Shown piece after piece: positions 1,969-50,913 of a DNA stretch of 64,000 nt (positions are counted from its first letter, which is position 1; each line of letters begins with the position of its first letter). Position numbers and translations under genes: made by a program. The stretch is from Pristiophorus japonicus (lineage: Eukaryota), in NCBI RefSeq assembly GCF_044704955.1, contig NC_091978.1, positions 349,556,001-349,620,000 of the forward strand. The letters are read 5' to 3'. A model generated the notes under the pieces. That model saw only the letters and a program-made list of their open reading frames with translations, was not told the DNA's origin and did not search any database.

Positions 1969-3985
1969 GGGGCCAAGTTTCGGCCCGAGTTGCTCCTGTT
2001 TTTTGGAGCAATTGGTTTAGAATGGAGTATCTTAGAAATTTGAATTCTCGGCATTTAGTTTGCTCCAGTTCTAGTCAGTTAGAACAGTTTCACTTTGGAA
2101 CAGAATTTTTTTTTCAAAAGGGTCGTGTCTGGCCACTTACGCCTGTTTTCAAAGTTTAGGCAGTGAAAACTTACTCCAAACTAACTTAGAATGGAGTAAG
2201 TGAAGATTTTTGTACGTTCAAAAAAACCTTGTCTATACTTTAGAAAATCAGGCATAGGTTACAAATTAGGCGTAGGGAATGGGGGGGGGGGTGTTTAAAG
2301 GGAAGTTTACAAACATTAAACACTTCAATTTTACAAATAAAGAGCCATCATCAATAATAAATGATCAATAAATCAACCAATAAATCAATCAAAAAAAATT
2401 AATACAATTTTGTAAAAAATGTAAAAATCAATAAATAAAACATTTTCTACTTACCAACTGCAGCGTGCTGGGACGCCCCCCCACCCCCCCAGTGTGTCTC
2501 TGTCAGTGTCTCTATCTCTCTGTCTGTCTGTGTGTGTGTCTCTCACTCTCTGTCTGTCAGTGTCTGTGTTTCTGACAGCGAGGGGAGGGGGTGGGAGGGG
2601 GAGAGGGAGAAGGGGGATGGGAGGGGGAGGGGAGAAGGGGGGTGGGGAGGGGGAGAAGGGGGGTGCAGGGGGAGGGGGAGAAGGGGGTGGGGAGGAGGGG
2701 GAGAAGGAGGGGGGTGAGGGGGGGAGGAGGATAGGGGTTGGGGGAGGGGGAGGAGGAGGGGGGGGGATGAGGAGGAGGAGGGGGGGCTGGGGTTGGAGGA
2801 GGAGGGGAGTGGGGAGGAGGAGGAGGGAGGTGTGGAGGAGGAGGAGGGGAGGTGAGAGGAGGAGGGGGGAGGAGGAGGGGGGGGAGAGGAAGGGGGGGAG
2901 GAGGAGGAGGGGTGGGCAGGGAGGAGGGGATGGGGGGGAGGAGGAGAGGAGGGGTGAGGAGAGGAGGGGTGAGGAGAAGGGGGGAAGGAGAAGGGGGAGA
3001 GGGAGAGAAGGGGGGAGAGGAGGAGGAGGGGGAGAAGGGGAGAAGGGGAGAAGGGGGAGAGAGGGGGAGAAGACAGAAAGGATGGAGGGGGGGAGAAGGG
3101 AGAGAGGNNNNNNNNNNNNNNNNNNNNNNNNNNNNNNNNNNNNNNNNNNNNNNNNNNNNNNNNNNNNNNNNNNNNNNNNNNNNNNNNNNNNNNNNNNNNN
3201 NNNNNNNNNNNNNNNNNNNNNNNNNNNNNNNNNNNNNNNNNNNNNNNNNNNNNNNNNNNNNNNNGAAGGAGAGAGGAGGGAGGGGGGAAGGAGAGAGGAG
3301 GGAGGGAGGGAAGGAGACGAGAGGGAAGGAGACGGGAGGGAAGGAGAGGGGAGGGAAGGAGGGAGGGAGAAGGGAGAGAAGGAGGCTGAACGGCTGGGCC
3401 CAAGACTTCGGGCTGGATTTACAGGTAGGTGGCGTCGGGTCTCAGGGGGGATCGTGGAGGTCCGGGGTGGGGGGGGAAGAGTCGCGGAGGTCCGGGGTGG
3501 GAGAGTCGCGGAGGCCGGGAGGGGGGGGGAGAGAGAGTGTCGCGGAGGTCCGGAGGGGTTGGGGGGGAGCGCAGAGGTCGAGTCAGGTCGGGTCGCCGGG
3601 GGGAGCGGAGGTTGGATCGCCGGGTGGGGGGGTGGAGAGCGGGGGACGGGTCGCCGAGGCGGGGGGGTGAGAGCAGGGGTCGGGTCCGGTCCGGTCGGGT
3701 GGGAGGAGCCTTATCCACGCAGCCCCAGTGAGGCCATTCGGCCAGGGCTAGGGGCTGCGTGCTTCGGGCCCCTCCCACAGTTTTGGGCGCCTGGAGCTAC
3801 TGCACATGCGCGCCCACTGTAGCACGCATGTGCAGAGGTCCCCGCACTGTTTTCAGCGCAGGGACCTGGCTCCGCCCCCCACAGCTCGTGCTGCGCCGCG
3901 CCCAGCTCCAGAGAGCCAGAGAATAGGTAAGTTTTTTTTAGGCGCACTTTGTGGCGCGAAAAGACGCGGCCCGAAACTTGGGTCC
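1969..3985. mobile_element. Non-autonomous Harbinger-like element (MITE) containing a purine-rich tract and an assembly gap
   Basis: Imperfect TIRs GGGGCCAAGTTTCGGCCCG and CGGCCCGAAACTTGGGTCC; flanks ACA/ATA; internal blocks shared with 57656-58564. Confidence 0.7.
2580..3385. repeat. G/A-rich low-complexity tract spanning a 157-N gap (3108-3264)
   Basis: Runs of GGA/GGG/GAG with almost no pyrimidines; N run seen directly. Confidence 0.95.
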
Positions 3986-8213: not shown

Positions 8214-8911
8214 TGGCATCACTGTGTGTGGACACCCATGCTAAGAATGGGAGATGAAACAAAGTGGTATAATGGAATCCGCTTGTAGCAATCCTGCGGA
8301 TGGGCTGATCAAACCCTGCTTGCCACAGTTCATTTCAGCTAAAGCTGTGTGCTTTCTCTTGGTGGGTTTGTGCTGGAAAACCAGCTCAGAAACTGCCAGT
8401 TCTGTGAAAGAATGTGATCATCCAAAGATCCCTTGCAGGCAGTTGTCAAATGAAAGCCACCCTTTGAGCTAAGTGATGCTAAGCTGTTTAAATTGCCAGT
8501 AACAAGCATTGTTTAGCAGCGGAGGAGAGCAGGACTCACGTTAAACTGTAAATGAACGTTTAGAGCCTCAAGGTGTCACCAGCACAGAAAAGGTTCAAAC
8601 TCGTTCCATTTATACTTGCCATTCGATCCATACTTTTCTGTCTGTGTTCTCTTTAACAGGCTGGTAGAGTAAAACAGGGGAGATCAGCAAACATCACATC
8701 TACAATGAAATGCTCAACCTCTCCTACCCCTCAGTATTTTAGAACATGAGCACTTTTCCTAAAAAGCAGTGTTGTAATGTATTTGCTTCATGGGTTCTTT
8801 GCTTAAGAATTCATAGCAACACATTGCTATTAAGAACGAACTGGTTTATTAACAAAGGTTTAACAATCACACTACACATTACCAGTTCATCCACTAGGCT
8901 AACAACTGCAT

Positions 8912-9012
8912 CATCATCATCATCATCATCATCATAGGCGGTCCCTCGAACGAGGATGACTTGCTTCCACGAGTTCACAGGTGTTTCGATGAAGGACCCG
9001 ATGTTCAGGTCC
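8912..9012 (-). mobile_element. Short RTE-type 3' fragment with (GAT)n tail
   Basis: (TCA)n tail; TSD CAACTGCAT at 8903-8911 and 9013-9021; same family as 48826-49222. Confidence 0.85.
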
Positions 9013-12000
9013 CAACTGCATAACTCATCGTGGATGACCTAGACCCAACTGACTGGGGTTTTAATGAGTCTGTGAACATCATGTGACTGGCTAAGCCACC
9101 CAAAATGCAACAGCTCTACAACTATTTTAAGTAAAAACATTAATACAAATGCCCCCTTATTAAATGGACACTAAAACCGACACATTAAACAAATTAAACT
9201 TTGGACATTAAAATAAATCAAATTAAAATTTGGTTGCCGGGGGTGATGATGCACTCCAGTCCCTCCGGTGCCCACCTCTCACGGAAGGCTGCGAGCGTAC
9301 CGGTGGACACCGCATATGCTCCATCTCCAGGGACACCCTGGCTCGGATGTAAGCGTGGAAGAGAGGAAGGCAGTCAGGCTGAATGATCCCCCCGACCGCC
9401 CACTGCCTGGACCGGTTAATGGCCACCTTAGCCATGGCCAGGAGCAGTCCTACGAGGAGGCCTTCCGACCTGCCTGCTCCCCTCCTGTTATGTATTGATG
9501 TTTGGGGTCACCAGACACCAGGGGACGCCACTGTCGGAGGTCATCAGGCTGTACACGCGTGTGCGCGGTCACTATAAAGGCGGGTACCATGTCACGCTTG
9601 TACTTTGAGCGCGAATAAAGTTGGATCAGGTTTACACATGAAGTCGTTTACAGTAACAAGACTCTTGAGTCATTACATTTGGTGACGAGGTAACTTAAGA
9701 ACCTTCGCATGTACAATGGGCACTAGTGAAATTCTGAAGAGATTCGCAAATGGAGAGGATTAGGCGTATTTTATCGACCACCTGGATCAGTATTTTGTGG
9801 CTTACAAAATGGAGGGAGAGGCTGACGCAGTTCGCCGCAGGGCAGTTTTCCTCACCGTTTGTGGTCCGAAAATTTACGGCCTTATGAAGAACCTTCTCTC
9901 GCTTTACGTCCAACAGACAAAGAGTACGAGGATTTGTGTGCTTTGGTGTGTGACCTTCTTAAGCCAAAAGAGGGGATCATCATTTCAAGCTATCACTTCT
10001 ATACGGATGTTCGTGCTGAGGGCCAGGATGTATCGGGATTCGTCGCTGACCTGCGACGTCTTGCTGAGCCGTGTAAGTTCGGGAACATGTTGGAAGACAT
10101 GTTGCGAGATTTCTTCGTGATAGGCATCAACCATGATGTGATTCTTCGGAAGTTATTGGCCGAAGAGAAGCTGGACTTGAGAAAGGCCATCGCAACTGCC
10201 CAGGCATGCATGACGACTGATGATAATTTGAGGCAGATATGATCGAAGAGTCAGAGCTCCACAGCAGGTACTGTAAACAAGATTGTGTCGTCTTCTGGCA
10301 GAGCTGCTTATGGCAGGGCCTACTCGACTGCTTATGTGAAACCTGTAGCTGCTCAGAGTCTGCCAACTGTTACGAATCTGATTTCACTCTGTTGGCGTTG
10401 TGGGGGCAATCATCGGCCTCATCAGTGTCGGTTAAACAATATGCCTGTAATGGTTGTTCGAAAGTGAGGCATCTTCAGAGAATGTGCCCATAACTGAGCA
10501 AGCGTGCTGCCGCTCATCACATTGTTGATGATGACCAATCCAGTGCTGGCCCAGATACCCAACCCGGGGAGGAAGTGTATGGTCTGTATTTGTTCTTAGG
10601 AAAGAGCCAGCCGATAATCGTTAATGTGAAGCTGAGTCAGTCGATAATGAGCCAAAGGACATTCGACAAGCTGTGAGACACTGAGGCTGTGAAGCCTAAG
10701 CTGAGTCCAATCAATACCAAGTTGTGTACTTACACTAAGGAACTCATACCGGTGATTGGCAATGCAGTAGTCAAGGTGTCATATGACGGTGTGGTTCATG
10801 CTCTAACATTTTGGATTGTCCCAGGTAATGGTCCAAAGCTGTTCGGCAGGAATTGGCTCGGGAAAATCAAGTGGAACTGGAATGATGGCAAAGCGTTGTC
10901 CTCGGTGGATGACACTTCATATGCTCAAGTGTTGAAGAAGTTTCCTTCTTTGTTTGAACCGGGCATTGGTAATTTTACTGGAGCCAAGGTGCAGATTCAC
11001 TTGGATTCTGATGCAAAGCCTGTCTATCATAAAGCTCAGTCTGTTCCTTACATGATGAGGGCGAAGGTTGAAATTGAGCTTGAAAGACTCCAACGTGAAG
11101 GGATCATATCACCGGTCAAGTTTAACGAGTGGGCCATTCCAATTTTCCTGTATTGAAGAGTGATGGCACTGTCAGGATTTGTGGAGACTACAATTCTCAA
11201 AACAGAATCAGTATCCGTTACCGAAGGCTGATGACCTGTTCGCCATGCTAGCTGGTGGAAAGTTGTTCACTAAACTAGATCTGACGTCAGCCTATATGTC
11301 ACAGGAGCTTGTCGGCACTTCGAAGAAACTCTCCTGCAACAACACCCATAAAGGACTGTTTGACTACAACAGGTGTCCTTTTGGAATTCGTTCGGCTGCA
11401 GCCATATTTCAGACGAATATGGAGAGTCTACTGAAGTCCGAGCCCAGAACTGTCATGTTTCAAGATGACATTCTGGTCAAGGTCACGCCACTTCTGAACA
11501 TCTGAACAATCTTGAAGAAGTCCTACGTCATCTGGATAAAGTGCGGCTCAGGCTGAAATATTCGAAGTGTGTCTTCATGGCACCTGAAGTTGAATTCCTG
11601 GGGAGGAAGATTGCTGCTGATGGCATCAGGCCTACCGATTCAAAAACCAAGGCCATCAAAAATGCACCCAGGCCTCTGAATGTGACGGAGCTGCATTCCT
11701 TGGGCTGCTCAACTACTTCGGTAATTTCTTACCCAGATTGAGCACTTTATTAGAGCCACTGCACATGCTACTCACAAAAGGTGACAACTGGGTCTGGGGC
11801 ATGTCTCAAGATAGAGCCTTTGAGAAAGCTAAGAATCTGCTCTGTTCAAACAAGTTGCTTGTTCATGATGATCCGTGTAAGCATCTTGTATTGGCCTGTG
11901 ATGCTTCATCATATGTACTCCAACAAGCAAATGAGTCGGGTAAGCTGCAACCAGAAGTGTATGCTTCAAGAAGTATGTTAAAGGTGGAAAGAGCTTACAG

Positions 12001-12640
12001 CATGGTAGAAAAAGAAGCATTGGCCTATTTTTATGGGGTTAAAAAGATGCATCAGTACCTGTTTGGTCTTCATTTTGAGTTCGAAAAGGATCACAAGCCA
12101 CTCATTTCATTGTTTTCGGAAAACAAAGGTATTAATACCAATGCAACGTTCCGTATCCAGAGGTGGGTGTTGACATTGTCTGCCTATGATTATTCGTCAT
12201 AGACCGGGTACTGAGAATTGTGCCGATGCACTGAGTTGTCTGCCTTTGCCCATACCTGATATGGAGATGCCTCAACCTGCAGATCTACTGTTAGTAATGG
12301 ATGCTTTTGAGAGTGAAGGAACTCCTGTCACTGATCAACAAGTTAGGATCTGGACCAGCCATGACCCTATTTTATCGGTTGTGAAACGTTGTGTCCTCAG
12401 TGATGATTAGTCTACAATACCTATGGAGATGTGTGATGAGACCAAACCTTACAACAGTCGCAAAGGTGAGCTGTCCATTCAGTCAGATTGTTTACTGTGG
12501 GGTAATCGTGACATTATGCCTAAGAAAGGTAGAGAATAATTCACGGGGTACGTGAACTACATAGTACTCATCCCGGTATTGTCACGATGAAAGCCATTGC
12601 TAGGTCTTATGTACGGTGGCCTGGAATTGACTCTGATATG

Positions 12641-12980
12641 TGTTCGATCTCTTAATTTTCAATGAGATGCGAACTCCGGTTGTAGATTTAAAGTAATTTT
12701 ATTCCAGCAGCCGCAACAGAACCTTGGCAGGGTTCCAGCTCTTTGTTCTTCTGAGAACACATGGCAAAAATGGCTGTTCTTATCCTGGATCAATTTACAG
12801 AAATGAACTCGCCTCCTTTGACCTTATTGGCTCAATTGACATATTGTTAACCCCTAATTGGCTCGCTGCCAAAAGTCCTAAAATGTCAAGTTGATTGATG
12901 ACTTAATGCAATGTGCTTATTCTCACGTAGACATAGGTCTGTGTTTTCTCAACTTTGCAGCCTGCTTGAATTCTCTATCA
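12641..12980 (-). mobile_element. 340-bp solo LTR, possibly ERV-type, inserted in the Gypsy A integrase region
   Basis: TG..CA ends; interrupts WPGIDSD/LESCV; 4-bp flanks TATG/TCTG; two CCAAT boxes and AATAAA on the minus strand. Confidence 0.65.
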
Positions 12981-13310
12981 TCTGGAATCATGTGTGCATC
13001 AGTGCAATGTTTGCATGCAGCTAAGTAAAGTACAAGCGGAATCTCCGCTGAGTCTTTGGTCGTGGCCAACTAAACTATGGTCGAGGATCCACATCGATTT
13101 TGCGGGCCCTTTCATGGGAAGATGTTTTTTGTTGTGGTGGATGCATGTTCAAAGTGGATAGAATGTATTATTATGTCATCCAGTACATCTACAGATACTA
13201 TTGAGAGACTTCGTGTCATGTTTGCTACTCATGGTTGGCCTAATATTGTTGTGAGCGACAACGGATTTTGCTTCACAAGTCTTGAGCTTCAGGAGTTCAT
13301 GAAACTCAAT

Positions 13311-15370
13311 GTCTGGTGTAAAAATAAAAAAGGGAAGGTGGCTCAACTGTGGCTATCAAGGGAAATCAGGGATAGTATTAAAGCCAAGGAAGTGGCATAC
13401 AAATTGGCCAGAAATAGCAGTGAACCCGGGGACTGGGAGAAATTTAGAACTCAGCAGAGGAGGGTTTGATTAGGGCAGGCAAAATGGAGTACGAGAAGAA
13501 GCTTGCAGGGAACATTAAGGCGGATTGCAAAAGTTTCTACAGATATGTAAAGAGAAAAAGGTTAGTAAAGACAAACGTAGGTCCCCTGCAGTCAGAATCA
13601 GGGGAAGTCATAACTGGGAACAAAGAAATGGCGGACCAATTGAACAAGTACTTCGGTATTCACTAAGGAGGACACCAACAACCTTCCGGATATAAAAGGG
13701 GTCAGAGGGTCTAGTAAGGGGGAGGAACTGAGGGAAATCTTTATTAGTCGGGAAATTGTGTTGGGGAAATTGATGAGATTGAAGGCCGATAAATCCCCAG
13801 GGCCTGATGGACTGCATCCCAGAGTACTTAAGGAGGTGGCCTTGGAAATAGCGGATGCATTGACAGTCATTTTCCAACATTCCATTGACTCTGGATCAGT
13901 TCCTATTGAGTGGAGGGTAGCCAATGTAACCCCACTTTTTAAAAAAGGAGGGAGAGAGAAAACAGGGAATTATAGACCGGTCAGCCTGACCTCAGTAGTG
14001 GGTAAAATGATGGAATCAATTATTAAGGATGTCATAGCAGTGTATTTGGAAAATGGTGACATGATAGGTCCAAGTCAGCATGGATTTGTGAAAGGGAAAT
14101 CATGCTTGACAAACCTTCTGGAATTTTTTGAGGATGTTTCCAGTAAAGTGGACAAGGGAGAACCAGTTGATGTGGTATATTTGGACTTTCAGAAGGCTTT
14201 CGACAAGGTCCCACACAAGAGATTAATGTGCAAAGTTAAAGCACATGGGATTGGGGGTAGTGTGCTGACGTGGATTGAAAACTGGTTGTCAGACAGGAAG
14301 CAAAGAGTAGGAGTAAATGGGTACTTTTCAGAATGACAGGCAGTGACTAGTGGGGTACCGCAATGTTCTGTGCTGGGGGCCCAGCTGCTTACATTGTACA
14401 TTAATGATTTAGACGAGGGGATTAAATGTAGTATCTCAAAATTTGCGGTTGGGTGGCAGTGTGAGCTGCGAGGAGGATGCTATGAGGCTGCAGAGTGACT
14501 TGGATAGGTTAGGTGAGTGGGCAAATGCATGGCAGATGAAGTATAATGTGGATAATTGTGAGGTTATCCACTTTGGTGGTAAAAACAGAGAGACAGACTA
14601 TTATCTGAATGGTGACAGATTATGAAAAGTGGAGGTGCAACGAGACCTGGGTGTCATGGTACATCAGTGATTGAAGGTTGGCATGCAGGTACAGCAGGTG
14701 GTTAAGAAAGCGAATGGCATGTTGGCCTTCATAGCGAGGGGATTTGAGTACAGGGGCAGGGAGGTGTTGCTACAGTTGTACAGGGCCTTGGTGAGGCCAC
14801 ACCTGGAGTATTGTGTACAGTTTTGGTCTCCTAACTTGAGGAAGGACATTCTTGCTATTGAGGGAGTGCAGCGAAGATTCACCAGACTGATTCCTGGGAT
14901 GGTGAGACTGACCTATCAAGAAAGACTGGATCAACTGGGCTTGTATTCACTGGAGTTCAGAAGAATGAGAGGGGACCTCATAGAAACGTTTAAAATTCTG
15001 ACGGGTTTAGACAGGTTAGATGCAGGAAGAATGTTCCCAATGTTGGGGAAGTCCAGAACCAGGGGTCACAGTCTAAGGATAAGGGGTAAGCCATTTAGGA
15101 CCGAGATGAGGAGAAACTTCTTCACCCAGAGAGTGGTGAACGTGTGGAATTCTCTACCACAGAAAGTAGTTGAGGCCAATTCACTAAATATATTCAAAAG
15201 GGAGTTAGATGAAGTCCTTACTACTCGGGAGATCAAGGGGTATGGCGAGAAAGCAGGAAGGGGGTACTGAAGTGCAAGTTCAGCCATGAACTCATTGAAT
15301 GGCGGTGCAGGCTAGAAGGGCTGAATGGCCTACTCCTGCACCTATTTTCTATGTTTCTATGTTTTCTATG
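13311..15370 (+). mobile_element. 5'-truncated CR1 LINE inserted in Gypsy A
   Basis: RT pieces KSPGPDGLHPRVLKE, YRPVSLTSVVGK, DVVYLDFQKAFDKVPH; (TTTCTATG)n tail; splits the host motif MKLN/GIRHV. Confidence 0.97.
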
Positions 15371-16014
15371 TATTAGACATGTGAGGCCAACTCCATTCAA
15401 ACCTGCTTCTAATGGTCAAGCAGAGCATGCTGTTCAAACGATTAAGCAGAGTATGAAACATGTAACTCAGGGTTCACTGCAGACTCGTTTGTCATGTATA
15501 TTGCTCAGTTACAGGTCAAGACCTCATACGCTTACTGGGGTTGCGCCTGCAGAACTACTGATGAAGAGAAATCTCAAGACCAAGCTTTCTCTTGTTCATC
15601 CTGATCTGAATGATTGTGTTGAAAACAGACGTCAAAGTCAGCAATGGTATCATGAGCGTGCTGCTGTGTCATGTGATATCTCGGTCAACGATCTGGTTTA
15701 TGTACTGAACCATGGTCAAGGTCCAAAGTGGATTGCCAGTACTGTTACAGCCAAGGAGGCTAACAGAGTTGTTATTGGCGTGCTTAAGAATGGACAAACA
15801 TGCAGGAAACATGTTGATCAGATAAAACTGCGGCACATAGATGAACTGGAACCGTTTGAGGAAGGTGCAGTCAGTGACCAACCAACCAATGTTCATTCAT
15901 CAGAGGACATGGGTGTCATGACTGAATCTGGACCTTCAGTCACTGATATAGTCATTACCATTCCCATCAGATCGGTTACTCAGCCTCCGGTCACAACTGA
16001 CTCAGAACACTCGC

Positions 16015-19000
16015 TGTCATGTATTCAACTATCAATGTAACCCATGTATAAGCTGACCTAAGTTGTACACCTTGAGAACATTGACCACAAGGGGGTGAAC
16101 TTGTGGGAGACACTCCTAACCTGGACTTTCAGGTATAAAAGGGGAAGCTCCACCCACCTTCATCACTTGAGGTCTTGGTAATCAAGGTAACTGGTCACAG
16201 AGTGACCTTTTCTCAAGTATGGGCCTCGTGTGCATTTATACTGTATAGTAAGGAGATATCATTGGCGACGAGAAACTGGGATTTAAACCAGGCGAGCATG
16301 GCCACTAGCAGCACAGAAGAGAAGTACTGTGTTGATGATGATTTGGACGACTTTATTGAGAGACTACAACAAAGTTTTGTCACGATGGAATAGTTGGGAC
16401 AGGATTCAGGCTGACAAACGCAGGGCTCATCTCCTGACGGTTTGTGGATCCAGAACGTACTCCCTGATGAAGGACCTTCTAGTGCCAGAGAAGCCGGCGG
16501 ACAAGACGTTCGAAAAGCTCAGTAAGTTGATCGGGGAACACCTTAAACCGGCGAGCAGCATTCACATGGCGCGACACCGGTTTTACACGCACCGGTGGCG
16601 AGAAGGGCAAAGTGTTCCAGACTTCGTGGCAGATCTCCGACGACTGGCGAGCCTATGTAAGTTCACAGATGCATGCAGAGCGGGGATGCTGCGAGACTTT
16701 TTTATTGAGGGCATTGGGCACGCTGGGGTTTTCAGGAAACTGATTGAGCCCAAAGACTTGACCTTGGAAGCGACGGCTCTGATAGCCCAGACATTTATCT
16801 CAGGGGAGGAAGAGACCAGAATGATGTATGACAAAAATCTTGGCTCAAATGCGGCAAACAACCAGGGAGTCAACATTGTTAACGCGGCACGCAGTTCTCT
16901 AGGCAGACAAGGGCAATCGGACATGCCCCAGCATGCAGTCGAATCCAAAGGGGGAATTCAACAGAGACGATGGCTAACTGAACGGCGATTCATGCCATTG
17001 TAATCGACAATGCGGCCAGTAATGGGGCCAGCAACACCTGTTAATGGTACACTAAAGGACAGTTACAGAGACAGTCAGAGATGATCGACTGGTAATGGAC
17101 CTTTTGTTTCCAACAACGGGGCCTCCAGCTCATGCTGGAGGTGTGGAGGCAAACAGCCAGCCAGAGCTTGCAGGTATCAGCAATATACCTGCAGAAACTG
17201 CAACGTCAGTGGTCACTTGGCGCGTATGTGCAGGAAGCCTGCAGCCAGGTTGATGTACGAGGAGGATGGGCCCGATGTAAGCCCTACGGGCCAAATGAAT
17301 ACTGGGGGAATTCGCTGGAAGCTGAAGTTCAGCGAGTTCATCTGGAGCACATATACAGTTCATATACCAGGACGCCACCGATAATGATGAAAGTGCTCTT
17401 CAATGGCATCCCAGTATTAATGGAGCTGGACACGGGGGCCAGCCATTCCCTGATGAATATCAAACAGTTCGAAAGGTTGTGGGTGCCCAAGGCCAGGAGG
17501 CCAAAATTATTGCCGATTGACGCACAGCTACGGACATATACAAAGGAGATTATTCCGATGCTAGGCAGCGCCACGGTAGTCGTGACCCACAAAGATTCGG
17601 AGAACAGGTTGCCACTCTGGATTGAACCGGGGGATGGTCCCGCACTACTGGGGAGGAGTTGGCTTGCTGTCATGAACTGGAAATGGGGCGATGTCAATGC
17701 AATTTCTTCGGTGGAGCGAGTATCATGCTCACAGGTCCTGGACAAATTTGACTCATTATTTCAACCCGGCATCGGCACTTTCATGAGGGCCAAGATAGTG
17801 ATTCACATAAACCCGGTCGCCAGGCCAGTATACCACAAGGCCAGAGCGGTGCCGTACATGATGCAGGAAAAGATAGAAGGCGAATTGGACTGCCTGCTGA
17901 GGGAAGGCATCATCTCGCCAGTCAAATTCAGTGACTGGGAGAACCCGATCGTGCCGGTGCTCAAGGCGAATGGGTCGGTCAGGATATATGGTGATTACAA
18001 GGCCACCATCAATCGGGTGTCACTCCAAGACCAGTACCTGCTACCGAGAGCGGAGGACCTTTTTGCGACGCTATCCGGTGGCAAACTTTTTCAAAAATGG
18101 ACCTGACCTCAGCTTACATGACCCAGGAGCTGGCGAGTGAGTCAAAGAAGCTGACCACCATCACGACACACAAGGGGTTGTTTGAGTATAACAGATGTCC
18201 GTTTGGGATTCATTCGGCCGCCGCGAACTTCAGCAAAATATGGAAAGCCTCCTCAAGTCGATTCCAAGGATGGTGGTTTTTCAAGACGACATCCTCATCA
18301 CGGCTCGCGATACTGAAGAACACCTCCACAACCTGGAGGAGGTGCTACCCAGACTGAACCGGGTAGGGCTGCAACTGAAAAAGGCGAAGTGCGTCTTCTT
18401 AGCTCCAGAGGTAGAATTCCTGGGGAGGAGGGTAGCAGCAGACGGGATCAGTCCCACTGTGTCCAAAACGGAAGCGATCCAGAGAGCACCCAGACCCCGT
18501 AACACGACGAAGCTGTGTTCGTTCCTGGGGTTCCTGGAACTATTTTGGTAACTTTCTTCCCAAATTGAGCACGCTGTTAGAGCCGCTACACATGCTCCTA
18601 CGCAAAGGTCGCGATTGGGTCTGGTGGGGACAGACAGGAAAGGGCTTTTGATAGAGCACGCAACTTGTTCTGCTCCAACAAACTGTTAACATTATATGAC
18701 CCGAGTAAGAAACTTGTTCTCATGTGCGGTGCGTCGTCCTGTGGGGTTGGGTGTGTGTTGCAGCATGTGAATGCCAATGGTCAGTTACAGCTGGTAGCTT
18801 ATGCCTCCAGAAGTCTGTCCCAGGCAGAAAAGGGTTACGGGATGGTAGAAAAGGAAGTGCTAGCATGTGTATATGCAGTAAAAAAAATGCACCAGTACCT
18901 GTTTGGCAGGAAATTTGAGCTGGAGACAGATCACAAACCCCTAACGTCCCTTTTGGCGGACAACAAGGCCATAAATGTGACTGCATCAGCCCGCATACAG

Positions 19001-20707
19001 AGGTGGGCACTGACATTAGCCACCTATGACTACACAATTCGGCACAGACCGGGCACTGAAAACTGTGCTGATGCACTCAGCAGGCTCCCACTAGCCACCA
19101 CTGAGGGGGCAACTGAACATGATGCTGAGATGGTCATGGCTGTTGAAGCTTTCGAAAGCGAAGGCTCACCTGTGACAGCCCGTCAGATTAAAGTCTGGAC
19201 AAATAAAGACCCGTTACTGTCTTTAGTTAAGAAATGTGTCCTGAATGGGGACTGGGCAGCCACGTATGGGGCATGCCCTGAGGAGTTTAAACCATTTCAT
19301 AGGTGCAAGGATGAACTCTCGATTCAGGCTGATTGCCTAATGTGGGGAAACCGAATAGTCATGCCCCAGATGGGCAGAGAGGTGTTTATCAGAGAACTTC
19401 ACAATGAGCACCCGGGCATTGTCATGATGAAGGCAATTGCCAGGTCACATGTTTGGTGGCCAGGGATAGATGCAGACCTGGAACACGTGTGCTCAGCTGG
19501 GCAACGCACCCAGGGAAGCACCCCTTAGCCCCTGGTCCTGGCCCGCCAAGCCATGGTCACGCATCCATGTGGACTACGCAGGTCCTTTCATGGGAAAAAT
19601 GTTTTTGGTTGTAGTAGACGCCTACTCCAAATGGATTGAGTGTGCCATTTTAAATTCAAGCACATCCTCTGCCACGGTAGAAAGTCTACGGGCAATGTTC
19701 GCCGCCCATGGTCTACCAGATGTCTTGGGCAGCGACAATGGCCCGTGCTTCACAAGCACTGAAATCCAGGACTTCATGGCAGGCAATTGAATCAACCATG
19801 TCAGAATGGCACCGTTCAAGCCAGCCTCAAACGGCCAGGCGGAATGAGCAGTGCAGATAATCAAACAGGGGATGCTCAGAATCCAATGATGTTCCCTACA
19901 AAGCCGCTTATCACGCCTCCTGTTGGCCAATAGATCCCGACCACACTCGCTCACAGGGGTTCCACCCACAAAGCTGCTAATGAAAAGGACGCTCAAAACC
20001 AGGTTATCCCTAATACACCCCACTATGAAAGAAATTGTTGAGAGCAGGCGTCAGTCACAATGTGACTACCATGACAGGAATTACGCTGCAGGGCCCAAAT
20101 GGCTTGCAGGCACTGTGATTGCCAAAGAGGGGAATAGAGTTTTGGTAGTTAAACATACCAATGGACAAATCTGCCACAAACACGTGGATCAAACTAAAAG
20201 GAGGTTCAGCAACCCCATAAAAGAAGAAGAGGAAGAACACGATGTAGAGTTCACTCCACCACAGGTGACCGAACACAGGAACCAAAGGGAGGAGAGCCCA
20301 ATCACTGTGGGCAGTCCGGACAGGCCTGAGGCACCGCAAACAGCAGACACTCAGGCCAGCGCCCAACAACCGGAGCCCCAACTCAGGCGCTCTACAAGGG
20401 AGCGTAAACCACCAGAGAGACTTAACCTGTGATTCCAATAAGGCTTTGCGGGGGAGGTGATGTCATGTATTCAACTGTCATTGTAACCCATGTATAAGCT
20501 GACCTAAGTTGTACACCTTGAGAACATTGACCACAAAGGGGTGAACTTGTGGGAGACACTCCTAACCTGGACTTTCAGGTATAAAAGGGGAAGCTCCACT
20601 CACCTTCATCACTTGAGGTCTTGGTAATAAAGGTAACTGGTCACAGAATGACCTTCTCTCAAGTATGGGCCTCGTGTGCATTTATACTGTACAGTAAGGA
20701 CATATCA
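16015..20707 (+). mobile_element. Ty3/Gypsy (Mag-like) element B, full length, nested in A
   Basis: LTRs 16015-16261 and 20461-20707; PBS TGGCGACGAG; PPT GGGGGAGGTGA; TSD CTCGC/CTCGC. Confidence 0.97.
16298..20432 (+). pseudogene. gag-pol of Gypsy B (disrupted)
   Basis: Gag RRAHLLTVCG; two zinc knuckles; protease MELDTGAS; RT FQDDIL; RNase H ETDHKPL; integrase HVDYAGPF and SDNGPCF. Confidence 0.93.
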
Positions 20708-21289
20708 CTCGCCGAGAACTAAAGTTGAATTGAGACGATCAAATCATGAGAGGAAAGTCCCAGACTGTCTTAATTTGTAAAGAGAGTGATATTAAGATTT
20801 TGAAAGAGGATGTTGTTATGTATTGATGTTTGGGGTCACCAGACATCAGGGGGCGCCATTGTCGGAGGTCATCGGGCTGTACGTGCGTGTGCGTGGTCAC
20901 TGGTATATAAATGTGGGTACCATGTCACGCGGGTGCTTTGAGTGCGAATAAAGTTGGATCAGGTTTACACCTGAAGCCGTTTACAGGAACAAGACTCTTG
21001 AATCATTACACCTCCGCACAGGGTGCCCAAAGATCAGGAGCGTGGGACTGAAGTCCAACCACAATTTGAGAAGCAGCCCATTCAAATATTGGAATGGGGT
21101 TGCAACCTCACACATTGCACATACACATGGAACACGGACTCAACCAGACCGCAGAAATTGCAGGCGGCCTGGGAATCTGTGAACCGACTTAAAAACCTAT
21201 TAAATGGGACTGTTCCGTGCAACACCCTCCAGGCCAAGTCCCCAATAAATACAGGGAGAACTCCCACATCGAGAGCAACAGCTCTACAA

Positions 21290-21975
21290 CTATTTTAAGT
21301 TGTGATCAGTAATCAATTGCTCCCTGATTAAAGGGGGAGGGACACTCCAAAATCTTTTCAAGTGCCCCCTTGTTTTTTTTTGAGGGCACTAAAACAAATT
21401 ATACAAGTGCCACCTGGCTAAAAGCTGGGGGGGGGGGCACTAAAACCAGCACAATAAACAAATTAAGCTTTAGACAAAAAATATCAAATTAAAATTTGGT
21501 TGCCGGGGCTGATGCCGGGGCTGATGATGTACTTCAGTCCCTCCGGTGTCCACCTCTCATGGAAGGTCGCGAGCGTATCGGTGGACACCGCGTGCTCCAT
21601 CTCTAAGGGCACCCTCGCTCGGATGTAACCACGGAAGAGAGGCAGGCAGTCGGGCTGAACGACCCCCTCGACCGCCCGCTGCCTGGACCGGGTGATGGCC
21701 CCCTTGGCCGTGCCCAGGAGCAGTCCTACGAGGAGGTCTTCCGACCTGCCCGCTCCCCTCCACACAGAGTGCACAAAGATCAGGAGTGTGGGACTGAAGT
21801 GCAACCAGAATTGGAGGAGCAGCCCCTTTAAATATTGGAACGGGGGTTGCAACCTCGTACATTCAATAAAAAGATGGAACACGGACTCTTCCAGACCGCA
21901 GAAATTGCAGGCAGCCTGGGAGCCCGTGAACCGACTTAAAAACTTATTGCAAAGGGAGAACTCCCACATAGAGAG
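21290..21975 (-). mobile_element. Tx1-clade LINE 3' fragment, copy 2
   Basis: CNKFLSRFTGSQAACNFCGLEESVFHLFIEC...GNQILI* plus 3' UTR; flanked by the target 14-mer at 21276-21289 and 21976-21989. Confidence 0.9.
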
Positions 21976-21989
21976 CAACAGCTCTACAA

Positions 21990-22128
21990 CTCTTTTGTTG
22001 CAAACTAATAAATAAACAATTAAATCAAGTGCCCCCTTATTAAAGGGGGGGACACTCCAAACATTTTTCAAGTGCCCTTTTTTTTGTTTTTTTTTTGTGT
22101 GTTTTTTTCTGGGTTTTTTTGTGGGTTT
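21990..22128 (-). mobile_element. Tx1-clade LINE, 3' UTR only, copy 3
   Basis: Shares ATTAAAGGGGG..GACACTCCAAA..TTTTCAAGTGCCC with the copy 2 UTR; flanked by the target 14-mer. Confidence 0.75.
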
Positions 22129-22223
22129 CAACAGCTCTACAAACCTGTGAGCATACATTACACTGGGAAAAGATGACCACTCAAGTTACTTCAATGTTGG
22201 GTAAACCTTTCAGACATTGATGA

Positions 22224-39609: not shown

Positions 39610-41818
39610 TATAATATTCAACGGATTTGGACTTGTTGGGGTGGAAATTCCTTTAGGATGATTTTTGGGCCTGAAATGGGCCCCAACTGGGATTACCCGA
39701 GGCCGGACTGAAATTTGGCTTTGGAACTCCTTAATATTATTTAGCTCAGCTGCCGGTGTCTGTTGGGCCTCCACAGGTAAATGGCCCATTTTTCAAGGAT
39801 CAACATCAGGCCACTGGGCTCAATGGCAGTAATCCAAAGGTAACCGGAGGTTTTGGCGGGCGGTTAGTGGAACCACAATGGGGGAATGGTTCTCCAACAT
39901 ATTTTGAGCCAGATCCCATCAACCAAAAAACACAACCAGTGCTAGAGTCACCTTTTCTTTGTTTTTAACCAGAGATACCAGGGCGGTACTAGTATTGACA
40001 TTGAGGACAGGCAGCACATAGCGATGATTCCAAAAATTGTTTTCAGCAAAACTGAATTTTGCAGGGCAGGTACAAAAAGCCATTGGATTAAGCTCAACAG
40101 ATTGTTGGCAGGGCCTGGGGGACAGTGCAAGAAACCAGACATCAACAGAAAGAAGAGGGTTACTAATGTGCATGGGAGGTGATGAGTGGATTCTGGATCC
40201 TGTTACAGAAGACAAATTGATCAGCAGTAAAAACATTTACAATTATCCAGGATTCCTTCCCACCCTGATGGCTATTCAGCACTATAGTGGAAGTGAGCAT
40301 ATGTGGACTATGGGTGTGGCGCATGATTGCACTCACTGTAATGCTCCCCACCCCCCCAAGTGATCGAATTATCAACCGACCACTCACTGCCAAGACTGGC
40401 ACATGATTAATTAATTAGGCTGGGCAAGGTGACCGGCGACGGGCGCTTATGGAAGCATAAGTGGGCAGCCTATGTGGAACTGTACCCCAGCAGAGCTAGA
40501 AAGAGTGAGGAACAATTGGCAGGAAGAGAAGATTCATTTCCCCACCAATCTGTGAATAAATAGAATAGATTGCAAGGATAAAAAGTTTAACCTGTAACAA
40601 CAGCAACTTTTATTTATATAGCGTCTTTAACGTCGTAAAACATCCCAAGGTGCTTCACAGGAGCATTATGAGACAAAACAAATAAATTTGACACCGAGCC
40701 ACATAATCTATTTTTAAAAAGTGTTAATACATATCTGTTTAAATATGAGATTAGAGGTTATAAGGTTAAGGAAGGGACCTAACTTTCTTTGGAACAAGAC
40801 TGTTGAAACTGTGCAGGAACTATTGGAACATAGAAACTATAGCATTCAGGAACAGGAGCAGGCCCTTCAGCCCTTCAAGCCTCTTCCGCCATTTAATTAG
40901 ATGATGGCTGATACTGACGCGTCATCTGTGGAATGTAACTGGTCAAACCTGTAAGTGTGGACTTAAGCGTCAATTAATATTCTGGGAGTTTGCTTAATTG
41001 TTTTTGAGGGAAATGTTATGGGAGATTATTTTCTTGAAGGTTTACTTTTGGTTAGCTGCCACCATCATGAGATTGATTAGGTTAGTTTAAGTGACAGAGC
41101 CATTATGCCATGTACATTAAATGTGGAAGAAATGGGCTTGCTGAGCTGACTGGGCGATTCTCTTTCCTTGTGTTTCTCTTTCTTTCATGAGGCTTATAGA
41201 AGCAAAAGAGTTAACAATTATTGTACTGTTTTTGCTGACTTTAAGCGGACTGACAGATTTGACAGAAAATTTCTCTGATCATGTACTACCATCATTATCG
41301 AGTGAAAATTAGTTTTCCATTCACTTTGTTGCACTTGTGGTTTATATCACCAAAATATTTACTGTCAAAGAGGTATGCAGACCATATTGACACAATTATG
41401 TGCCTCCAATTTTCATAGTTCGTCACTAAAAGTAATGCTGACCTTTTTGGGATGAATCATGCTCTAAGTGTGTTTTTGGTTTGTGTGCTTCTGATGGGTA
41501 TTTGATGTGAGACAGATCTGTGTGAAGAGAGGTTGCTGTAATGTCTAGACTTATCATTACAATGGGAAAATTTCACACAGCCGCTTCATTGATCCCAAAA
41601 TTACTAATATCTACCTTCCACTGAGCATTTGGATAAAGTTCAAAATAATTAAATGATTATAAGTTACTTCACAAAGCTAATAGGAAAAAAAACTTGCTGC
41701 ACATGTAATTGCTGTACCTGAATACTAGATCAAAAGTAAATTGCTCAGTTACCCCTATGACTCAGTGGTAAATGCACAAAGTGGTTTCTCACTGTGTGGT
41801 GTGTTACTGTGTGATGTA

Positions 41819-50328: not shown

Positions 50329-50913
50329 TGTAATGTATTTGCTTCATGGGTTCTTTGCTTAAGAATTCATAGCAACACATTGCTATTAAGAACTGGTTGG
50401 TTTATTAACAAAGATTTAACAATCACACCACACATTACCAGTTCATGCACTAGGCTCACAACTGCATACCTCATCGTGGACCTAGACCAACTGACTGGGG
50501 TTTTATTGAGTCTTGTGAACATTATGTGACTGGCTAAGCCACTCACAATGCAACAGCTCTACAACTATTTTAAAATAAACAGATAAAGCTGCGACCTTAT
50601 TGAAGGGGGACTAAAACCCACAAAATATCAAATAAAACTTTAAAGGGAACTTAAAAGATCAAATTAAAATTTGGTTGCCGGGGGTGCAACAGCTCTACAA
50701 TTTTAAAGTAACATTCAATCAAGTGCCCCCTTTTAGTAAGGGCACGAGAACTCACAAATTTCCAAGTAAAACTTTAAAAGAAACTTAAATCAAATTAAAA
50801 TTTGGTTGCTGGAGTAATGATGCACTCCAGTCCCTCTGGTGCCCACCTCTCGCGGAAGGCTGCGAGAGTACCGGTGGACACCGCGGCAACAGCTCTACAA
50901 ACCTGTGAGCACA
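50329..50913 (-). mobile_element. Second solo-LTR-like copy carrying two tandem Tx1 3' fragments (50565-50686 and 50701-50886)
   Basis: Aligns to 8773-9121 and 22143-22154; target 14-mer at 50551, 50687 and 50887; both fragments contain TCAAATTAAAATTTGGTTGC (stop plus NQILI on the minus strand). Confidence 0.88.

Follow-up and report, generated by a model that had tools for sequence, protein, structure and literature searches.

The window analysed here, a stretch of DNA of 64 kb in all, holds five fragments of a Tx1-type LINE in two copies of one LTR-like repeat, every fragment enclosed by copies of the same 14-mer. The question that this arrangement raises is whether the fragments arrived one by one at a preferred site, or were copied together with the repeat that contains them. 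An earlier note on this DNA argued for recurrent targeting as opposed to segmental duplication, and our results favor that view. The flanks of the two loci, the junctions of the inserts, the number of filled sites in the genome and the unequal occupancy of sister LTRs all support it, and judging from these sequence comparisons the phenomenon is very probably real: a Gypsy LTR that a Tx1 LINE has entered recurrently, at a specific site.

The two loci and their elements

Self-comparison of the window delimits the common repeat at 8773/50329 and 22153/50911. Beyond these boundaries there is no similarity, and the outer flanks are indeed unrelated, as the earlier note had claimed. The 14-mer is present in exact form at the three places first reported for locus 2 and at four further places in locus 1 (Table 1); allowing up to two mismatches, the 64-kb window has 7 matches, against a mean of 0.55 in shuffled sequence. 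The Tx1 copies (A to E) number five, as counted before, all lie on the minus strand, and they are the sole matches of long Tx1 references in the window. The insert lengths previously given for locus 2 are correct, and so is the statement that the two loci have different 5' truncation points and UTRs. Within locus 1, copies A and B have one 5' truncation point in common. Copy E is without the last three bases usual at the Tx1 3' end, and the 5' end of the LTR is incomplete at both window loci. The LTR arms, whose alignment had been proposed as a check, are 93% identical between 8773-8918 and 50329-50475, and 222/235 aligned bases match (94%) when the insertion at 8919-9009 is excluded. Contig sequence supports the unique flanks and a junction piece at 50659-50726; joints inside the repeat are indistinguishable from those of other loci. 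Copies outside the window are referred to by L numbers.

Table 1. Features of the two loci, in window coordinates.
Feature	Position	Strand	Remarks
Locus 1 LTR arm	8773-9121	-	unrelated 91-bp repeat inserted at 8919-9009; 14-mer at 9108-9121
Tx1 copy A, 3' part	9122-9485	-	96-nt UTR
Gypsy of another family, interrupting copy A	9486-21010	+	LTRs 9486-9677 and 20814-21010; 5-bp TSD; further insertions within
Tx1 copy A, 5' part	21011-21275	-	5' junction is that of copy B
14-bp target/TSD	21276-21289	-	exact 14-mer
Tx1 copy B, 686 bp	21290-21975	-	ORF2 C-terminus (43% to Xenopus Tx1 ORF2 aa 1150-1306); 194-nt UTR
14-bp target/TSD	21976-21989	-	exact 14-mer
Tx1 copy C, 139 bp	21990-22128	-	UTR only; different subfamily
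Upstream 14-bp target copy and shortened LTR 5' end	22129-22162	-	target copy 22129-22142; LTR 5' end 22143-22162
Gypsy LTR positions 274 to 35 (3' arm, ending in downstream target copy)	50329-50564	-	95% to genomic copies
14-bp target/TSD, downstream copy	50551-50564	-	exact 14-mer
Tx1 copy D, 122 bp	50565-50686	-	5'-truncated 28 nt before ORF2 stop; 94-nt 3' UTR
14-bp target/TSD separating D from E	50687-50700	-	exact 14-mer
Tx1 copy E, 186 bp	50701-50886	-	97 nt of ORF2 end and 89-nt UTR; tree sister L007
14-bp target/TSD, upstream copy	50887-50900	-	exact 14-mer
LTR 5' end remnant (LTR 1-34, partly deleted)	50901-50913	-	loose ends at 50911 continue as intact LTR end

Other repeats have entered the same region. 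The insertion at 8919-9009 is a short repeat end, tailed by (CAT)n and accompanied by a 9-bp duplication within the locus-1 LTR; it recurs at window positions 41818, 48848 and 54026 and in L023 and L026, and related tails adjoin other LTR copies. Window positions 9486-36737 form a deep nest in which at least five Gypsy-type families and CR1 copies are inserted in each other and in copy A, and 2425-3822 is a low-complexity tract rich in purines/pyrimidines, of which 3108-3264 is masked.

By the similarity ranking of its reverse transcriptase (RT) the insert is a Tx1 LINE. The RT of the 4-kb copy L102 shows 56% identity to Xenopus Tx1 ORF2 (YTX2_XENLA), its best named match; turtle proteins are about equally close, and most teleost Tx1 matches lie at 39-45%. 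In tblastn, residues 1-1301 of the Xenopus Tx1 protein are spanned on L102, and the same protein aligns in the window at 21945-21472 and 21264-21097. Pfam matches to RVT_1 and zf-RVT were obtained in Tx1 copies, along with a decayed endonuclease fragment that has no Pfam score, and candidate frames upstream of ORF2 in L106, where ORF1 was sought, gave no Pfam match. The copies share the orientation of the LTR; they are truncated on the 5' side and have, in place of poly(A), a short conserved 3' terminus. Truncation combined with target site duplication (TSD) was followed through 83 units between 14-mers and 78 mapped junctions. Three 5'-complete copies gave no match to a U1/U2 snRNA head up to E 1. 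Minimal inserts of 11-13 bases, consisting of the bare Tx1 3' terminus between two target copies, occur at L110, L160, L099 and L202, and at L067/L086, L124 and L136 Tx1 lies a short distance beyond the primer-binding site, within the internal part of Gypsy, two of these in reverse orientation.

The host repeat is, from its hallmarks, the 274-bp LTR of an old, decayed Gypsy element on the minus strand of the window. Empty copies measure 270-277 bp with 10-bp inverted ends, and the features expected of a Gypsy LTR are present: TG...CA ends, a 5-bp TSD, a primer-binding site (PBS) and a polypurine tract (PPT). The TSD was found, within one mismatch, in 8/15 host copies whose far LTR end could be located. 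An LTR end followed by the primer-binding motif has 83 matches in the genome and a polypurine tract followed by an LTR start has 63, against 0 for controls. Moreover, the approximately 4.5 kb between paired LTRs contain a gag zinc knuckle, protease, RT, RNase H and integrase, in Gypsy order. It is because of the PBS and PPT junctions and these internal domains that we read the repeat as a decayed Gypsy LTR; a DNA transposon with 10-bp inverted ends was also considered, and is ruled out by PBS, PPT and internal pol. The pol of the host shows only 26-45% similarity to the other Gypsy pol pieces in the window, and we take the Mag clade as a lead for its affiliation. The 14-mer corresponds to LTR positions 35-48 and should, from this position, lie in U3, which is what we take the target region to be. 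All copies are old by the measure of sequence divergence, sister LTRs being 84-94% identical (12 pairs) and TSD pairs 9.8% mismatched.

Shared 5' junctions between tandem neighbours

The 5' junction common to copies A and B is not an isolated case. At least 12 of the first 14 bases are common to adjacent copies in 10/24 pairs, as compared to 2/3358 between-locus pairs, and more such cases lie outside the 24 parsed pairs (L131, L122, L076, L099, L002). A is no more than 83.9% identical to B, which ranks the pair 46 of 66. In 8/10 same-junction pairs both UTRs are clearly nearer to other loci than to the neighbour, and simple duplication fails in 8/10 because the neighbouring UTRs represent different subfamilies. 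In a tree of 57 copies, same-junction neighbours belong to different supported clades. The UTRs of the two other pairs (L097, L202) are as close as any. A shared 5' junction within a locus thus does not imply duplication.

Tx1 has targeted one fixed site, 35 bases in from the U3 end of the LTR, in LTR orientation, and known LINE biology suggests how the shared junctions could form. The APE endonuclease of ORF2 would nick the bottom strand (at LTR 34/35 or 35/36) and reverse transcription would begin at the nick, with the top strand opened about 14 bases downstream. The duplication would restore a target fit for use, native upstream flank included, so that later copies would be expected to stack at the upstream duplicate. 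Nested common TSD mutations at L105, the sole informative array, place new arrivals at that duplicate. When a resident copy is present, the upstream top strand would often extend into the resident and pair with the new cDNA, and consequently the newcomer would take over the 5' junction of the resident. This entry of the top strand into the resident is the simplest reading of the shared junctions, although repair from a sister chromatid or homolog would look identical. Same-junction pairs are 92% identical over the first 50 nt, like TSD pairs (9.8% mismatch), and 86% identical over 50-400 nt, like unrelated copies (median 86%). Beyond 400 nt identity is 92% again (916/993), chiefly at L105 and L048, which counts against junction capture.

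The shared junctions could instead have originated after insertion, either by tandem duplication or by allelic conversion or repair from a sister or homologous chromosome with a single resident copy. Long tracts of high identity at L105 and L131 point in this direction, and sequence alone cannot distinguish sister-chromatid repair from pairing in cis. However, the upstream copy of L097 contains 13 nt of its neighbour's junction followed by a 5-nt microhomology jump to its own truncation, and a capture of 13 nt is too short for homologous recombination. We regard such a later origin as less probable than not.

A second line of evidence on how the cDNA is joined comes from copies that are 5'-complete or nearly so (L085, L128, L164, L167), in which the upstream duplicate has a G at LTR 35. 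Genome-wide, this G is found at 4/6 strict full-length junctions compared to 15/1229 empty sites (p 6e-7); in L085 and L128 the sister LTR is without it. We infer that the Tx1 RNA starts with target sequence, the G deriving from the start site or the cap, and that in full-length insertions this RNA would pair with the overhang and import the G. Taken together, capture of the junction through the resident copy and G-importing pairing of RNA and overhang form an account towards which the junction patterns incline us, if narrowly.

Target specificity and occupancy

The Tx1 family has repeatedly inserted at one fixed site and strand of the LTR, and it fills most such sites in the genome. In the 5.9-Gb assembly exact 30-mers identified 3158 filled junctions and 1214 empty sites, i.e. 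72% filled among intact sites, with the reservation that exact 30-base matching undercounts filled and empty sites alike. Among the best 29 non-self LTR matches, scored by eye, 14/29 were filled; for 3' LTRs (60 taken of 63 found, scored by rule) the result was 22 filled, 27 empty and 11 unclear. Viewed from the insert, 20/29 non-self Tx1 copies sampled were at the target (12 by rule and 8 by eye), or 16/29 on a strict reading, and both figures exceed the level of 20% of flanks in one target above which Kojima (2015) recognizes specificity. These values should be interpreted with some caution since the LTR and Tx1 samples are best-hit or exact-pattern samples, and as such non-random.

Several Tx1 subfamilies have inserted in this way. 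A minority of copies, 9/29 of those sampled, is off target, a point against the targeting reading, but with the first four target bases kept: 7/9 begin with TTGT, and at L042, L051, L056 and L059 the flank is duplicated over approximately 14-15 bases. LTR position 157 serves a single UTR subfamily (L076, L127, L128, L133) as a second site, represented by 223 exact junctions; the off-target copy L056, of the same subfamily, has the local context found at LTR 157. Junctions at this second site display T in place of the LTR's A. Consequently one further base or more would come from the Tx1 RNA, and the nick could lie at 34/35 or at 35/36.

It could be hypothesized that Tx1 recognizes no sequence at all, but prefers the open chromatin of LTRs, with priming by a short RNA-DNA match setting the position. 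That off-target copies keep only about four bases is compatible with such a process, as is an RNA end that supplies the T at the second site. However, mutated targets are enriched among empty LTRs. The upstream target copy was perfect in 10/19 filled but only 4/27 empty 3' LTRs (p 0.009; this leaves out four filled and three empty LTRs with deleted or misaligned targets and includes four added by eye), and the per-base mutation level at LTR positions 35-41 was 6.0% in filled and 12.7% in empty LTRs, a difference of borderline significance (p 0.058). In addition, Tx1 has a single orientation, and at off-target sites the motif predates the insertion, because it is present in both TSD copies. Nor are 5' LTRs, which hold the promoter, significantly more filled than 3' LTRs (22/36 and 22/49, respectively; p 0.19). 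An initial 6:0 preference for the 5' LTR in sister pairs became 6:2 with L085 and L128, in which the 5' LTR is empty and the 3' LTR filled. Placement by chromatin and priming is for these reasons improbable, and recognition of the site itself remains our preferred reading.

The target is flanked by two hairpins at LTR positions 13-34 and 53-73 (L020:1467-1540), the first of which stops exactly before the target (fold z -5.6). We considered the hairpin as a recognition signal and rejected this, its conservation being alike in filled and empty LTRs (7.2% vs 7.6%).

Independence of the insertions

The order of events can be read from the two LTRs of single Gypsy elements. Among 59 PBS-anchored elements, 18 were scorable by eye at both LTRs: 6 were filled/empty, 2 empty/filled, 5 filled at both and 5 empty at both. 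A passenger in U3 would reach both LTRs, yet occupancy is discordant in 8/18, and Tx1 therefore arrived after Gypsy integration. Neither duplication nor hitch-hiking explains such differences between sisters. Hitch-hiking here means that a Gypsy master with Tx1 in its LTR gave rise to a composite that was amplified by Gypsy transposition, a scenario that would account for the high occupancy, for the similar age of LTR pairs and TSD pairs, and for the 5/18 elements with both LTRs filled. However, a composite with the same insert in both LTRs and across copies is not what the 18 pairs reveal, since, besides the discordant ones, double-filled pairs carry different inserts wherever these are visible. 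Moreover, 63 of the 78 mapped 5' junctions are distinct, and many UTR subfamilies are represented. We consider hitch-hiking very improbable, with the qualification that it may apply to a few loci.

The earlier note had also expected that a Tx1 tree would fail to follow the loci. This holds insofar that no cross-locus sister pair appears among 57 copies, but the test proved ambiguous and is weak when taken alone: the bootstrap is not settled, a locus-1 clade is rejected (p-AU 0.029) while a locus-2 clade is retained (p-AU 0.39), and the two locus-2 copies, D and E, fall in one subfamily. Junctions shared across loci, named at the outset as the sign of joint copying, were looked for and none was found between the two window loci. 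That a segmental duplication transferred LTR and Tx1 between them can be practically dismissed, given that the 94% likeness of the window LTR arms, the point in its favor, is matched by LTR copies on other contigs (93-95%), and that the flanks are unrelated, the inserts differ, and neither a common junction nor a cross-locus sister pair exists.

Comparison with known systems

Targeting of other transposons by Tx1, LTR elements included, is already known. In the portion of his report used here, Kojima (2015; PMC4494074) describes Tx1L in Tx1D, Tx1-Mar in Mariner-N4 at two positions, and Tx1-8_Crp and Tx1-4_AMi in LTR retrotransposons. As far as the sections drawn on extend, Xenopus Tx1L in Tx1D resembles the present case in its clade (context in PMC3747384, in part), in its single site within another transposon and in a specificity that comes from the endonuclease, as characterized for Tx1L by Repanas (2007) (PMC1950540, PMC4494074). 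The host, however, is a Gypsy LTR here and a piggyBac-type DNA transposon in Tx1D; the bases after the putative nick differ from the AGTT of Tx1L, and we found no composite transposition. The crocodilian families Tx1-Mar, Tx1-8_Crp and Tx1-4_AMi likewise prefer other transposons, two of them targeting LTR retrotransposons, and the same portion of text records two sites in one host, tandem insertion and similar decay (PMC4494074). Some crocodilian families have a U1/U2-derived head, whereas none was found here, and the occupancy and shared junctions that we found are unreported in those sections (PMC4494074).

The R1 element of Drosophila 28S rDNA is, in the parts of the paper by Stage and Eickbush (2009; PMC2718515) that we draw on, an APE-type LINE with tandems at 14-bp TSD spacing, formed by insertion at the 5' TSD, and target sequence on its RNA pairs at the junctions, all of which is similar to the Tx1 arrays. 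R1 belongs to another clade, however, and its target is a conserved gene array as opposed to dispersed LTRs; 5' truncations common to neighbours of different subfamilies, as seen here, are absent from those parts. For R2, the passages of Eickbush (2013; PMC3774820) consulted describe a heteroduplex of cDNA and target that propagates junction variants; the G at LTR 35 suggests that here, too, the RNA carries upstream target sequence, by which it pairs with the target and passes variants on. In contrast to Tx1, R2 has a restriction-like endonuclease and a ribozyme, whereas the start of the Tx1 RNA is one that we infer. The double-insertion tandems of McGurk and Barbash (2018; PMC5932611), in the part considered, also arise by repeated insertion with a TSD at the junction. 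Distinct 5' truncations indicate independent events there, whereas here independent events often share one.

The literature that we covered (Repbase reports and most subscription papers lay outside its scope) contained nothing on this Tx1 family or on Tx1 targets in cartilaginous fish, and nothing on shared 5' junctions of tandem neighbours from different subfamilies. The signature of junction capture may be new, a point on which we are evenly divided.

Significance

With one site filled thousands of times, the genome would record the last step of LINE integration. In the fullest form of our reading, about four in ten tandem pairs had the cDNA joined via the 5' end of the resident, giving target duplications that range from 14 bases to tens or hundreds; full-length RNAs would have their start at the nick and form a duplex with the overhang; and Tx1 would saturate a co-active Gypsy LTR, recombining its subfamilies at each re-entry. 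Our confidence in this reading as a whole is evenly balanced between acceptance and doubt. If it is true, Tx1 parasitizes an element that is itself a parasite, and LINE tandems whose 5' truncations are identical need not be products of duplication, a caution against interpreting them in that way.

The system is a large and clean example of a LINE that uses another transposon as a safe haven, with approximately 70% of intact sites filled, and endonuclease specificity could be mapped with the internal controls that its empty sites, sister LTRs, off-target copies and second site provide. How the top strand is opened and the second strand primed is poorly understood, and on this step the common 5' junctions and the imported G offer genomic evidence. 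The same data could also address whether the presence of Tx1 in U3 helped to silence the Gypsy family.
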